This document shows positions 15,304-19,802 of a stretch of DNA of 64,000 bases, in pieces (position 1 is the first letter of the stretch; every line of letters begins with the position of its first letter). The notes under the pieces were generated by a model, which was not told where the DNA came from, did not search any database, and saw only the letters and a program-made list of their open reading frames with translations. Source of the stretch: an uncultured Mycoplasmatota bacterium (lineage in GTDB: Bacteria > Bacillota_I > Bacilli_A > RF39 > UBA660); NCBI GenBank assembly GCA_946488855.1, contig CAMLWC010000003.1, forward strand, positions 3,349 to 67,348, in the 5' to 3' direction. The position numbers and the translations under genes were made by a program.

Positions 15304-15654
15304 TTAATCTTTTGGTTTGAATATTAATGAAAATATAAATGAAAATACAATAGCAGCTGTAATTCCAGATGCTGTTAAATTAAACATGCCACTCATTAAT
15401 CCCATATAACCAACTTCAACACTAGATACCATTGCTCCATGAATTAATAAGTGACCAAAACTAGTAATTGGAACACATGCTCCAGCACCAGCCCACAATA
15501 TTATTTTATCATATATATTAAACAAATCTAAAAAACAACCTAAGACAACAAATATCGTAGTTATATGACCTGGTGTTAATTTTGTATTATCTAATATCAA
15601 CTCACCTATTAAACAAATAATACCACAAAATAGAAATGAATTTATATAAATCAA
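15304..15654 (-). CDS. spoVAEb: Stage V sporulation protein AEb
   Basis: 116 aa, collinear with B. subtilis SpoVAEb (..KLTPGH..AGAGACVPITSFGHLLIHGAM..SGITAAIVF..FKPKD). Confidence 0.9.
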   Translation of the reverse strand: MIYINSFLFCGIICLIGELILDNTKLTPGHITTIFVVLGCFLDLFNIYDKIILWAGAGACVPITSFGHLLIHGAMVSSVEVGYMGLMSGMFNLTASGITAAIVFSFIFSLIFKPKD

Positions 15655-16640
15655 TCTATCACCTCCAAACTTACTGCATGAGCAATACTTGGAATAGTAC
15701 TTTTATTATTAACCATTGTTGTATTCATTAAAGCACCAGTTGCAACTAACAATACCCTTTTTATTTCTTTTTTATACATTTTATTAAATATATAACCATA
15801 AGTAACTAAAGGAGCACAAGCAGGACCACTAGCACCAGCATAAACTGGTTGTTTATTTATATCATATATCATCGAACCGCAATCATCATAGTTTTTAAGT
15901 TCTATATTATACTCTGTCAACATATAATCTTTTAGAATATCCTTACCATACATTCCTAAATCTCCAGTTAAAATTAAATCATAATAACCTATTTCTCTTT
16001 TTGTTTCTCTTAAATGATCATATATTGTTTTAGCAGCAGCTGGTGCCATAACAGCTCCCATATGATATACGTCAGTTACTCCTAAATCAACCACAGTTCC
16101 TAAAGTAGCACTTTCTATTTTAATACCTTTTTTATTTTTAGATAAATAAGCACTAGCTCCTCCAGTAGAAGTAAATGTTGTAGTTTTTCTTTTTGGCCCA
16201 CCATATTCAACTGGATATCTAAATTGTTTTTCAGCAGCATTATTATGAGATGATGTTGAAGTAATAGCATTTTCTACTTGCTTAGCCTCAATCATATTAG
16301 AAGCTATAATTAAACCTAATACACTTGTTGAACAAGCACCATATATGCCAATTAATGGAATTCCTAAACTAGAAGCTGCATAATTAGTAGCTACTATTTG
16401 ATTTAATAAATCACCTGATACTAACACATCAATATCAAATTTAGTTTTACCTACTTTGTTTAATAAAATATCAATTGATTCTTCAATCAATTTTATTTCA
16501 GCTAATTCCCATGATTTAGTATTAAAATATAAATCATTATAACTTTTATCAAAATATTTAGATAATGGACCACTTCCTTCATAAGGCCCTGTTATTGTAG
16601 CAGTATCATTTATATAAACATTATTATATTTAAAAGTCAT
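15651..16640 (-). CDS. spoVAD: Stage V sporulation protein AD
   Basis: Start at MTFKYNNVYIND after a GGAGG RBS. Thiolase-like fold with GACSTS, in the spoVAC-AD-AE order. Confidence 0.9.
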   Translation of the reverse strand: MTFKYNNVYINDTATITGPYEGSGPLSKYFDKSYNDLYFNTKSWELAEIKLIEESIDILLNKVGKTKFDIDVLVSGDLLNQIVATNYAASSLGIPLIGIYGACSTSVLGLIIASNMIEAKQVENAITSTSSHNNAAEKQFRYPVEYGGPKRKTTTFTSTGGASAYLSKNKKGIKIESATLGTVVDLGVTDVYHMGAVMAPAAAKTIYDHLRETKREIGYYDLILTGDLGMYGKDILKDYMLTEYNIELKNYDDCGSMIYDINKQPVYAGASGPACAPLVTYGYIFNKMYKKEIKRVLLVATGALMNTTMVNNKSTIPSIAHAVSLEVID

Positions 16641-16641
16641 A

Positions 16642-17079
16642 TTAACCTCCAATTATTAATCTTAAAAAGCCAAATATATAAGCACTTACAACACCAAATA
16701 CTATTACAGAACCAGCTAATTTAAACATATTAGCACCTATTCCTGTTACAAATCCTTCTTTTCTATACTCTAATGTAGCACTCATCACCGCATGAGCAAA
16801 CCCTGTAATTGGTATAATTAATCCACATCTTGCAAAATTAACTAATTTATCAAAAAAACCTAAACAAGTAAATAAACATCCTAAAAATACTAAAGTAACT
16901 ATCATTAGCATCGTACCATCACTTGTAGAAATATTAAAAATATAAGAATATATATCTGTTAAAAATTGTCCTAATAATCCCATAACTCCACCTATTAAAA
17001 AAGCAATTAAAGCATTATTTAAAACATTTTCTTTTGGTGTATGTTTAGCTACTAATCTTTTATATTTATTTTCTTCCAT
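16642..17079 (-). CDS. spoVAC: Stage V sporulation protein AC
   Basis: 145-aa membrane protein (..FLIGG.MGLLGQ...IPITGFAHAV...). It is the first gene of the spoVA trio. Confidence 0.9.
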   Translation of the reverse strand: MEENKYKRLVAKHTPKENVLNNALIAFLIGGVMGLLGQFLTDIYSYIFNISTSDGTMLMIVTLVFLGCLFTCLGFFDKLVNFARCGLIIPITGFAHAVMSATLEYRKEGFVTGIGANMFKLAGSVIVFGVVSAYIFGFLRLIIGG

Positions 17080-17096: not shown

Positions 17097-17125
17097 TATT
17101 ATGTATTTATTATTTTTTTTTATAC
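17097..17125 (-). promoter_or_regulatory. Candidate forespore (sigma-G/sigma-F type) promoter for spoVAC-AD-AEb
   Basis: The minus strand reads GTATA-17 nt-CATAATA (-35 at 17125-17121, -10 at 17103-17097). This fits the published GHATR-N17/18-CATXHTA consensus. The leader to the SD would be very short. Confidence 0.35.
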
Positions 17126-17153
17126 AAAAAAACTAGTTTATGCAACTAGTTTT
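17126..17153 (-). terminator. Hairpin at the 3' end of the sigma-factor gene
   Basis: AACTAGTT (17131-17138) pairs with AACTAGTT (17144-17151) and is extendable to 10 bp. It overlaps the stop codon and is followed on the minus strand by a T-run. Confidence 0.45.
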
Positions 17154-17785
17154 GATTTTAATTTGGTTAATATTTTTTGTTCACCACGTGAAACTTGAAC
17201 TTGACTTATTCCAAGTTCATTAGCTGTTTGTTGTTGTGTTAAATCATACATATAACGTTTATTTATTAATTCTTGTTCAAAAGGATTAAGTTTAGATAAT
17301 TCTTCTTTTAAAAGTAATAAATCATCAATATCGTCAGTCTTACCAATAGTATCTTGTAAAGTTATGTCTTTTCCTTCATCATTTAATGGTTCATCAATAC
17401 TATAAATTGGTTTATTACTATTTATAGCTTCTTCAATCATATAAGTTGGAATTTCTAAATAATCAGATAATTCCAAAATAGTAGGTGTTCTCATCAATTT
17501 TTGAGTTAATAAAATATTAGCTTTTTCTATTTTTAAATTTAATAATTGAATATTTCTACTTATTTTAATACTTTTATCTTCACGAACTAACTTCTTCATT
17601 TCACCTAAAATATAAGGATACGCATAAGTTGTAAATTTAACATTCATATCAGGATTATAATTTTTATAAGCCATAATCATTCCAATACATCCTGCTTGAA
17701 ATAAATCTTCTTTATTTGAATATTTTTCAAAATATCTCGTAATTGAATAAATTAAATTTTTATTTTCGAATATTAGTTCTTCCAT
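17138..17785 (-). CDS. sigF: Sporulation-type sigma-70 family factor (SigF/SigG-like)
   Basis: Region 2 FQAGCIGMIMAYKNYNP..FTTYAYPYILGEMKKLVRE and region 4 LGISQVQVSRGEQKILTKLK closely parallel B. subtilis SigF (LGISQVQVSRLEKKIL). It is preceded by a STAS gene and followed by spoVA. Confidence 0.75.
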   Translation of the reverse strand: MEELIFENKNLIYSITRYFEKYSNKEDLFQAGCIGMIMAYKNYNPDMNVKFTTYAYPYILGEMKKLVREDKSIKISRNIQLLNLKIEKANILLTQKLMRTPTILELSDYLEIPTYMIEEAINSNKPIYSIDEPLNDEGKDITLQDTIGKTDDIDDLLLLKEELSKLNPFEQELINKRYMYDLTQQQTANELGISQVQVSRGEQKILTKLKSKLVA

Positions 17786-17794
17786 TTATTCCTC

Positions 17795-18157
17795 CTATAA
17801 ATTAATTACATTAACAGCACTTAATTCATCAGACGTTTCATACATATATTTTAATAATCTACTATTATTTATTCTATGTTTAACTAAATTATTATTCATA
17901 CCACATACTAAACTTTTGCCATTATTTATTTTGCATAATTCATAATTATTAAGTAATGCATTAATACCATAACAATCAATTGATTCTAATTCACTTATAT
18001 TAAAAACTAAATTTCTAATACCATTTTCTCTTACTAAATTATTTACTTCCTCTTTTAATTTATTAACTGTACTTTTATTAAGAACTCCTTTTAATCTAAT
18101 AAATAAAATTCCTTTACAAAATTCTAAATTAATATCTAACAATCTATCACCTTCCAT
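17795..18157 (-). CDS. STAS-domain protein (SpoIIAA-like anti-sigma-factor antagonist homolog) lacking the conserved Ser
   Basis: It aligns by eye along the full length with B. subtilis SpoIIAA. The motif LSFMDSSGLG corresponds to LESIDCYGIN here, so Ser57/Ser58 become Cys/Tyr. Confidence 0.65.
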   Translation of the reverse strand: MEGDRLLDINLEFCKGILFIRLKGVLNKSTVNKLKEEVNNLVRENGIRNLVFNISELESIDCYGINALLNNYELCKINNGKSLVCGMNNNLVKHRINNSRLLKYMYETSDELSAVNVINL

Positions 18158-18209
18158 AATAATTTAGCACAACTTTTTTCAAAATTATACACAATCGACA
18201 AAACTAGAA

Positions 18210-19802
18210 TTATTTTTTGTTCGACTTTTTTCCTATTAAATAACTTAAATAAAGAAGTAACAAAAATATTATTAAAATAACTTTACTATCTAGTGATCCT
18301 AATTTTAATATATATTTAGGTATTTTATTATTATTCAATTTTTTTAATAATTCTTCTTTTTCTAAAGTTACATTACCAATACCTTCATTTAAAGTTTTAA
18401 TATCTTCTTCTAAATCAGTTATTTTATTTGAATTAAAATTATTTAATTTATTTAAATTATAAATTTCTTCTTCTTTTTTCATAAGTTCATTATTTAAATT
18501 ACTAATCTCTTTTTCATATTGTTTAATCAAATTATTCAATTCAATAATCTTTTTATTTAAACAATCTTTATCTAAATTACATTTATTTAGTTGTTCTTTT
18601 AATATTTTTATTTCCTCTTGATATTTTTTTATCTGTTCCTGTAATGAAGAAATTAAATTACTTTCAACATTTAAAGTTATTTTTTCTGTAACTATTAAAT
18701 CATTTAATTTAAATTGAATATCATATACACCATTTTTATTCCAATTAATATTACTATTTATTACAACTTCTCCAGTACTAGAAATAATAAAATTCTTTAG
18801 ATCAAAATCTTTATTAGTTATTTCTTTTAAATTTAGTTCAAGTTTATCTCTGGTTCGATAACTATAAAAATATTTTAAACTATCTTCTAGTTTATAAATA
18901 TAATCATCTATTGGTTCTTTAGAATAATTTGAATACTCTTTTTCTAAAATATAAACTTTACACCATTTTTCTTTATAACGATATTCATAATTTACTTTAG
19001 TATCAATTATATATTCACAATCTTCTTTTTCATAAGAATTATAAGTAGTAACATAACTAGTAGTTGGAATATTTAGATCATAAATTGTTCTAATAACTTT
19101 TTGAGCATTATCCCAATAATAATCAGAAAACTTCATTGTATAGCTTTGTGCAGCATATATGTCTTTTTTATCATTAGAGAATCCTATTGTATATAATTTA
19201 TCTGTACTTCCTAAATCATAGATATAAAATAATATTTCTATTTTGGTTATTGGATAACTTTTACCTAAATCAACAATTAATGAGCCATTATTATCAATAT
19301 AAGAACTATTTTCATCATAATTACCATTATTTATATATTTTCCAAAATTACTATTACATCCATTACAACTAAATGTATAATTAATTTTTTTACCATCAAT
19401 TGTAATATTTAATTCAGGAATTCTAAAAGCACCATAACTTCCTTGTAAATTATATAAATGAATATATCTTGCTTCTTTTGCTTTTGTATAAGTATATTTT
19501 TCTCTAGTTTCATATATATAACCTATATTATCTATTTTTTTATTACTCCAATTAGAATATTCAGTTAAATAACAATCATCACTAAATTCATCTAAATTAT
19601 TATATAACTTATAATCAGTTAAAACTTTATTTTCCTTATACCATAAATATCTTGGTTCTTTAATTACATCAACAGTATCGCTAGCTACTACATCTTCTTC
19701 TTGAAATTCACTAAAACTAGAATAATTAGAATAATAAACTTTAGCACTTACTATATTACTAAAAATTAAACTTAAAAATATTAACCACAAAAACTTTTTC
19801 AT
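18210..19802 (-). CDS. Secreted/surface protein with W/Y-rich modules, C-terminal coiled coil and TM anchor
   Basis: Signal peptide MKKFLWLIFLSLIFSNIVSA. Motifs RYLWYKENK, EYRYKEKWCKVY and YFYSYRTRDK. Heptad-rich region ~aa 385-500 (QEQIKKYQEEIKILKEQL...). C-terminal TM segment VILIIFLLLLYLSYLIG. Confidence 0.6.
   Translation of the reverse strand: MKKFLWLIFLSLIFSNIVSAKVYYSNYSSFSEFQEEDVVASDTVDVIKEPRYLWYKENKVLTDYKLYNNLDEFSDDCYLTEYSNWSNKKIDNIGYIYETREKYTYTKAKEARYIHLYNLQGSYGAFRIPELNITIDGKKINYTFSCNGCNSNFGKYINNGNYDENSSYIDNNGSLIVDLGKSYPITKIEILFYIYDLGSTDKLYTIGFSNDKKDIYAAQSYTMKFSDYYWDNAQKVIRTIYDLNIPTTSYVTTYNSYEKEDCEYIIDTKVNYEYRYKEKWCKVYILEKEYSNYSKEPIDDYIYKLEDSLKYFYSYRTRDKLELNLKEITNKDFDLKNFIISSTGEVVINSNINWNKNGVYDIQFKLNDLIVTEKITLNVESNLISSLQEQIKKYQEEIKILKEQLNKCNLDKDCLNKKIIELNNLIKQYEKEISNLNNELMKKEEEIYNLNKLNNFNSNKITDLEEDIKTLNEGIGNVTLEKEELLKKLNNNKIPKYILKLGSLDSKVILIIFLLLLYLSYLIGKKSNKK

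Follow-up and report, generated by a model that had tools for sequence, protein, structure and literature searches.

The STAS–sigma gene pair described here lies within a window of 64,000 nucleotides (nt), the whole stretch of DNA that was analyzed, from an uncultured Mycoplasmatota bacterium of the order RF39 (assembly GCA_946488855.1, contig CAMLWC010000003.1, positions 3,349 to 67,348). The host assembly (G000) is a metagenome-assembled genome (MAG) of 1.23 Mb in 76 contigs, 71% complete, and the DNA of the window contains ~23% G+C. SpoIIAA, SpoIIAB, and SpoIIE form the textbook partner switch that couples gene expression to cell division, and the three proteins are treated as belonging to the universal core of endospore formation. 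The locus comprises three elements:

17795..18157, minus strand: gene of a SpoIIAA-derived STAS protein (Pfam STAS, 51.8 bits), 120 amino acids (aa) from the ATG at 18157 or, likelier, 115 aa from the TTG at 18142, with the phospho-loop ID-C-Y-G
17786..17794, minus strand: spacer of 9 nt, GAGGAATAA, carrying a GGAGG ribosome-binding site that extends across the STAS stop codon; too small for a gene
17138..17785, minus strand: gene of a strongly diverged SigF-type sporulation sigma factor of 215 aa, with sigma-70 regions 2, 3, and 4

The first-pass annotation of the window had described the STAS gene as followed, 9 nt further, by a SigF-like sigma gene, and both open reading frames (ORFs) are indeed found there, on either side of the spacer. 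No further ORF of at least 50 aa overlaps 17138-18157. Within the genus it is not the ATG at 18157 that is conserved but the TTG at 18142, along with its upstream Shine-Dalgarno sequence GGAAGGTGAT (18155-18146), and this start agrees with the N-termini of relatives in the family; the STAS protein is therefore probably 115 aa long.

Almost certainly, this locus is orthologous to the spoIIA operon. It belongs to an order of gut Bacilli with small and very AT-rich genomes, in which spoIIAB has been cleanly deleted and SpoIIE has gone. The STAS gene has been kept, closely spaced with or overlapping sigF and under strong purifying selection, while its phospho-serine and canonical motifs have been erased; Spo0A, a 0A-box promoter, SpoIIR, SpoIIGA/pro-sigma E, sigma G, and sigma K are retained. 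With the kinase, the phosphatase, and the phosphorylatable serine lost, the textbook forespore switch cannot work here as described.

The STAS protein

The protein exceeds the Pfam STAS cut-off by far (51.8 bits versus 22.6) and reaches only 52 bits with the SpoIIAA equivalog model TIGR02886, whose cut-off is 114.75. Its closest chains in a phmmer search of the whole PDB are SpoIIAA of G. stearothermophilus (1TID, 1TH8) and of B. subtilis (1AUZ). The alignments with 1TH8_B and 1AUZ_A extend from end to end and are ungapped through the phospho-loop, with one small gap later. They place 'lesidCYginallnny' beneath 'ltfmdSSglgvilgry', that is, D-C-Y-G under D-S-S-G, so that the phosphorylatable serine of the DSSG loop (Ser58 in B. 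subtilis SpoIIAA) is absent from the protein and a cysteine stands in its place. The by-eye reading of the first-pass annotation, in which DSSGLG becomes DCYGIN and both serines are replaced by Cys and Tyr, is thus borne out over an ungapped segment, and the proper alignment does not restore a Ser or Thr at the phospho-site. The genus loci inspected share the loop SID[C/Y]YGIN.

The remodelling was assessed on an alignment of STAS proteins encoded next to sigF in relatives, 32 from kinase-less loci together with four canonical SpoIIAA. Residues invariant in the canonical proteins (GELD, F-M-D-S-S-G-x-G-x-I-x-G-R-Y, and S-G-L) are kept in only 0-30% of the 32 kinase-less ones, whereas the fold-core residues L18, G24, L26, N53, D61, G64, and G80 are kept in 91-100% of them. 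In the work on 1TH8, the erased motifs reportedly make up the face contacting SpoIIAB. The phospho-position itself is hypervariable among the 32 proteins, being occupied by E, N, S, L, D, C, Y, and others. The highest share of Ser/Thr in any column of the alignment is at most 66% of the sequences, so that the STAS protein has no conserved phospho-acceptor at any position.

Loss of the motifs has not been accompanied by loss of constraint. Across 19 species of the genus, the median ratio of nonsynonymous to synonymous substitution rates (dN/dS, pairwise Nei-Gojobori) is 0.11 for the STAS gene and 0.14 for the sigma gene. By this measure the STAS gene is under strong purifying selection, and it appears to be kept for a reason, but not for SpoIIAB. 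The family is large: its profile matches ~1,825 protein clusters (at 90% identity), with source annotations that go no further than 'STAS domain-containing protein' or 'anti-sigma factor antagonist'. The family genomes surveyed contain one STAS gene each, which adjoins the sigma gene in 30 of the 30 family loci inspected. Among the genomes present in both surveys, all STAS-positive ones also encode SpoIIR, and the checkable SpoIIR-negative ones have no STAS gene; this co-occurrence ties the STAS protein to the sporulation gene set.

The missing kinase and phosphatase

Searches for the two enzymes of the switch covered the organism's own assembly, a genus sample of 30 genomes (nine of them at least 90% complete), and an order sample of 151 genomes from 86 genera (150 at least 90% complete). 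B. subtilis was positive in every control. The absence of a HATPase-type anti-sigma ORF, read from the window in the first-pass annotation, extends to the whole 1.23-Mb assembly, window included, where HATPase_c_2 has no match. The SpoIIAB model TIGR01925 matches, in this genome, only frames of 384-458 aa, taken as histidine kinases. A tblastn search of the same genome with three canonical SpoIIAB from related families gave a best E-value of 0.006, its hits falling in the long frames already matched by TIGR01925 (contigs C27, C14, and C1) and on C10. Within the genus, HATPase_c_2 matches occur only in frames of 310-894 aa, and no SpoIIAB-type kinase is found in the 30 genomes. None of the 151 genomes of the order exceeds the TIGR01925 cut-off, and among the matches listed the frames are 254-787 aa long. 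The 9-nt spacer leaves no SpoIIAB gene at the syntenic site either.

The picture is the same for the phosphatase. The SpoIIE PP2C domain (PF07228) is found neither in the organism's own genome nor in any of the 151 genomes of the order; in the genus it is matched in a single genome of the 30, by a 233-aa frame (G020:C2:16248-16805, 30.9 bits) that is too short for SpoIIE. Profile searches for both proteins, complemented by tblastn for SpoIIAB, thus recover neither from the organism's genome, and a canonical spoIIAA-spoIIAB pair was not encountered elsewhere in this genome, in the genus, or in the order.

The sigma factor

The best NCBIfam matches of the sigma factor are the SigB/F/G model TIGR02980 (184 bits) and the SigF model TIGR02885 (178 bits), both below the respective cut-offs of 234 and 321; regions 2, 3, and 4 are all above their Pfam cut-offs. 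Among solved structures it is closest to sigma F of G. stearothermophilus (1L0O_C, E = 1e-35). The assignment as sigma F orthologue rests on synteny. Sigma F is the sole sporulation sigma factor of this genome that lies far from its model (178 versus 321), sigma G, sigma E, and sigma K being near or above theirs.

The alignment with G. stearothermophilus sigma F begins at residue 31 of the latter, and the N-terminus is short here, as had been noticed from the sequence. The shortness is real. Its proposed role in a rewiring is rejected: sigma F is also short (207-241 aa) in relatives that keep SpoIIAB, and the feature is therefore not tied to the loss of the kinase. A second candidate feature, charge complementarity between the two proteins, was discarded as well. 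Kinase-less STAS proteins have a median isoelectric point of 9.2 and sigma F one of 5.3, but canonical relatives overlap this range and the charges of the two partners are uncorrelated (r = 0.17).

Orthology and distribution of the kinase-less locus

Four other families of the class (loci L048-L051) possess the canonical arrangement of a STAS gene encoding FMDSSG, a SpoIIAB gene of 143-149 aa, and sigF. The genes spoVAC-spoVAD come next in L048, L049, and L051, while L050 ends after sigF. The sister family of the same order (L052) and divergent species of the genus (L053, L054) exhibit the same locus without the kinase, with the loop reading DEYA, DNSG, or DSEG. The genus loci inspected keep the order STAS, sigma, mostly with a gap of 8-11 nt (two overlap, at -1 and -17), and spoVAC comes next in most of them. 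In 30 further genera of the family, a sigma gene follows every STAS gene at -16 to +12 nt, again with spoVAC next in most cases; dacF lies upstream in some of these genera, as in Bacillus. This synteny with the canonical spoIIAA-spoIIAB-sigF-spoVAC loci of neighbouring families identifies the pair as the orthologous operon minus spoIIAB and not as an unrelated paralogue. The kinase-less trait is order-wide in these RF39-type Bacilli.

Comparison with the spoIIA operon of Bacillus, Geobacillus, and Clostridia (1TH8, 1TID, 1AUZ, 1L0O) delineates what has been kept and what has been lost. The locus is orthologous, with the order (dacF)-STAS-sigF-spoVAC/AD/AE and a 0A-box promoter: the STAS gene comes first in the operon, and the sigma F gene last, followed by spoVA, as in the canonical relatives. 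The STAS fold aligns with SpoIIAA over its whole length, the nearest match of the sigma factor is sigma F, and the SpoIIR-SpoIIGA-sigma E relay is present here too. In contrast, there is neither a GHKL anti-sigma kinase nor a PP2C phosphatase, the phospho-serine is replaced (by Cys here, hypervariably in the order), the SpoIIAA motifs are erased, and sigma F is strongly diverged. The idea of a rewired partner-switching module, put forward from the sequence of the window, therefore stands for a locus devoid of SpoIIAB, SpoIIE, and the phosphorylatable serine and orthologous by synteny. The RsbV-RsbW-sigma B system and other STAS/GHKL switches likewise have the gene of a STAS antagonist in one operon with a group-3 sigma factor, but all of them need a GHKL kinase and a PP2C phosphatase, neither of which is present here.

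A second STAS-sigma pair was detected by tblastn in the assembly, on the 16.7-kb contig C23 (G000:C23 13978-14957; 5979-6958 in L024), with the motif IDESG and overlapping genes. It was considered as a duplicated kinase-less module and rejected, as the contig is foreign to this organism. The ribosomal protein RpsF encoded on C23 is 39-51% identical to that of all 29 other genus genomes and 83% identical to that of G047, which belongs to another genus of the family; the order rpsF-ssb-STAS-sigma recurs in G047, whose STAS protein shares 80% identity with that of C23. By these identities and the gene order, C23 is mis-binned and brings in the kinase-less pair of its own source organism, so that the organism described here has one pair; every other family genome surveyed has a single STAS gene. 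To note, the CheckM contamination figure of 0.43% gives no sign of the foreign contig.

Operon anatomy and flanking genes

The following elements surround the pair, the promoter elements having been read from the sequence and the spoVA genes identified with Pfam/NCBIfam models:

18184..18226, minus strand: candidate promoter region of the STAS-sigma operon, with two Spo0A-box-like heptamers and a TATAAT -10 box
18226-18220, minus strand: distal 0A-like heptamer AGTCGAA, by the B. subtilis 0A-box consensus
18200-18194, minus strand: proximal 0A-like heptamer TGTCGAT, by the same consensus, abutting the -10 box
18189-18184, minus strand: -10 box TATAAT
17124..17153, minus strand: terminator-like hairpin with a 10-bp stem, the sigma stop codon in its loop, then a T-run
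17097..17125, minus strand: forespore-type promoter-like motif GTATA-N17-CATAATA upstream of spoVAC, conserved in the genus
16642-17079, minus strand: spoVAC (SpoVAC, 166 bits, above cut-off)
15651-16652, minus strand: spoVAD (SpoVAD, 423 bits, above cut-off)
15304-15654, minus strand: spoVAEb (SpoVAE, 135 bits, above cut-off)

The proximal box and the -10 box (cTAGTTTTGTCGAA..GTATAA) are kept in 19 species of the genus (loci L004-L022), mostly with a perfect TGTCGAA heptamer and with TATAAT or TATAAA as the -10 box. By analogy with the B. subtilis 0A-box consensus, the segment 18184-18226 may function as a Spo0A-controlled promoter. At the other end, the AT-rich hairpin is conserved in the genus and has a predicted energy of -9.4 kcal/mol (z = -3.45); in L014 it is altered on both arms of the stem. 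The stem contains too few G-C pairs to be picked up by a generic terminator scan. The motif GTATA-N17-CATAATA resembles the sigma G/F (forespore) promoter consensus. Considered together, the promoter with its 0A boxes, the hairpin, and the motif on the spoVAC side suggest that the STAS gene and sigF would form a Spo0A-driven bicistronic unit.

The region directly upstream of the STAS gene is variable. In the window (18210-19802) and in many genera of the family (L075-L089), it encodes a secreted protein with a C-terminal membrane anchor, for which Pfam returns only a weak discoidin-like match. Other genera have dacF at this position, or the gene of a 415-470-aa protein with a hydrophobic N-terminus.

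The sporulation programme

The rest of the sporulation programme is well represented in the organism's own genome. Spo0A scores 258 bits against a cut-off of 200, sigma G 365 bits, pro-sigma E 323 bits, and sigma K 316 bits, the last above its subfamily cut-off. SpoIIGA adjoins sigE and is found in 28 of the 30 genus genomes, including this one; SpoIIR is present here and, this genome included, in 86 of 101 genomes of the order. Spo0A, sigma F, E, G, and K, SpoIIR, SpoIIGA, and the SpoVA genes are thus all present. Upstream of spoIIR, a sigma F-type promoter is matched only partially and in very AT-rich DNA, and none is claimed.

The gene absences are partly in print. A 2024 study, 'Multiple independent losses of sporulation and peptidoglycan in the Mycoplasmatales and related orders' (PMC10868615), found spoIIAB and spoIIE reduced or absent in RF39 and predicts that RF39 sporulates. 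Its content on RF39 is a table of KEGG gene presence and absence only; it does not cover the STAS gene that was kept directly beside sigF, the disappearance of the phospho-site, selection on this gene, or any mechanism. The 2025 report of the SpoMAG classifier (PMC12536801) disagrees with it on RF39 sporulation. Our literature search found no paper on the STAS-sigF pair that has been kept, on the loss of its phospho-site, or on a mechanism. The absence of the genes in RF39 is already published, and neither the remodelled STAS partner nor its mechanism has a description in print.

Control of sigma F without a kinase

Our tentative preference is for a new use of the STAS protein, as a stoichiometric partner of sigma F itself that would act independently of phosphorylation. 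This explanation is possible rather than probable, and it is ranked first because of the stoichiometric co-production of the two proteins, their order-wide conservation, the disappearance of the STAS gene together with sporulation genes, and the exceptionally strong divergence of sigma F. The STAS protein would be made 1:1 with sigma F from a single Spo0A-dependent bicistronic mRNA and would most plausibly keep sigma F inactive, or else stabilize it. Forespore-specific removal of the STAS protein, for example by turnover or by dilution after septation, would free sigma F, which would then, like its counterparts in other spore formers, activate spoIIR and the forespore genes. A more committed version holds that the four-protein phospho-switch (SpoIIE, SpoIIAA, SpoIIAB, and sigma F) has collapsed to a phosphorylation-free two-protein module, the STAS protein itself binding and holding sigma F until its own turnover or dilution after asymmetric division releases the sigma factor in the forespore. 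In this form the proposal is rather unlikely; if true, it would provide the first STAS domain acting directly as an anti-sigma factor.

Several points weigh against a direct partnership. We know of no STAS protein that binds a sigma factor directly, and, to our knowledge, no experiment has demonstrated sporulation in any member of the order. The tight adjacency of the two genes could be simple inheritance from the ancestral operon after a clean deletion. Direct binding, which the first-pass annotation had raised as a possibility, also found no support in structure prediction. Because the reading frame runs on from the STAS stop codon through the spacer to the sigma start codon, the read-through product STAS-GEES-sigma (P0001) could be folded as a natural fusion with AlphaFold2, using an alignment of 146 rows (7 paired, 70 STAS-only, and 69 sigma-only). 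All domains fold well, with a predicted local distance difference test (pLDDT) score of 81.8, but the predicted template modelling score (pTM) of 0.39, versus 0.37 for sigma alone, is that expected for undocked rigid bodies and thus gives no support for a confident STAS-sigma interface. This is a weak negative: the model was one for monomers, the linker had 4 residues, most rows of the alignment were unpaired, and the result was judged without an error map. Finally, SpoMAG assigns RF39 MAGs a sporulation probability of 0%, with spoIIAB among the nine genes that are universal in its predicted spore-formers (PMC12536801).

A somewhat less probable explanation dispenses with a protein inhibitor of sigma F altogether. 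Sigma F would be controlled by Spo0A-dependent transcription and its own turnover only, and the STAS protein would have another sporulation-related job (as a positive factor, a chaperone, or a ligand or membrane partner), remaining in the operon by inheritance. The conserved 0A box and -10 box upstream agree with such control, as does the missing docking signal in AlphaFold2. Nor does the position of the operon demand any special control in the one closed family genome sampled (G265:C1, 1,191,766 bp): sampled GC skew places the origin at ~340 kb and the terminus at ~945 kb, and the STAS-sigF operon, at 606 kb, lies ~45% along the replichore and not near the origin. As a means of discriminating between the mechanisms, chromosomal position was set aside, since ~45% of the replichore does not separate them. 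On the other hand, unrestrained sigma F is deleterious in B. subtilis, and a STAS gene present only by inheritance fits poorly with the close spacing or overlap of the two genes (-17 to +12 nt) in more than 30 genera, and with the loss of the STAS gene along with SpoIIR in the checkable asporogenous members.

Alternatively, the STAS protein may still be an antagonist, but of an anti-sigma factor other than a GHKL kinase, encoded elsewhere, with the partners being switched by binding or turnover instead of phosphorylation. Some STAS antagonists do bind non-kinase inhibitors, an example being HsbA with FlgM in Pseudomonas. Such a partner would account for selection having preserved the STAS protein even as its former interface motifs were replaced, and for AlphaFold2 giving no sign of direct docking on sigma. 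We nevertheless hold it to be unlikely: no candidate gene lies within or beside the operon, the pair being the only ORFs of at least 50 aa over 17138-18157, the upstream neighbour varies by genus (surface protein, 415-470-aa protein with a hydrophobic N-terminus, or dacF), and the genomes, at ~1.1 Mb, are strongly reduced.

It is quite improbable that the order makes no endospores and that the operon is the remnant of a decaying pathway or has been co-opted for another programme. The SpoMAG score of 0% for RF39 MAGs (PMC12536801) and the lack of a known cultured sporulating member speak for this view, but a dN/dS of 0.11-0.14 speaks against it, and the complete set of sigma F, E, G, and K is accompanied by Spo0A, SpoIIR, SpoIIGA, and the spoVA genes. 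Sporulation of RF39 is, moreover, predicted in PMC10868615, and the SpoMAG verdict is partly circular, because spoIIAB is among the genes on which the classifier depends. An assembly or binning artefact, with a true spoIIAA-spoIIAB pair hidden in the missing 29% of the MAG, has a negligible chance of being the explanation: the assembly is only 71% complete and contains at least one foreign contig (C23), yet the syntenic site itself is a 9-nt gap, the kinase is likewise missing from the nine genus and 150 order genomes with a completeness of at least 90%, and each genome has only one STAS gene.

Implications

This gut-associated order, rich in species, retains sigma F together with its STAS partner and the relay downstream, yet has neither the kinase nor the phosphatase of the switch, and the first compartment-specific sigma factor must therefore be activated in an undescribed way. 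One practical consequence is that sporulation predictors using spoIIAB as a marker will call these organisms non-sporulating (PMC12536801). The RF39 locus offers a natural minimal system for asking what the forespore-specificity of sigma F really needs.

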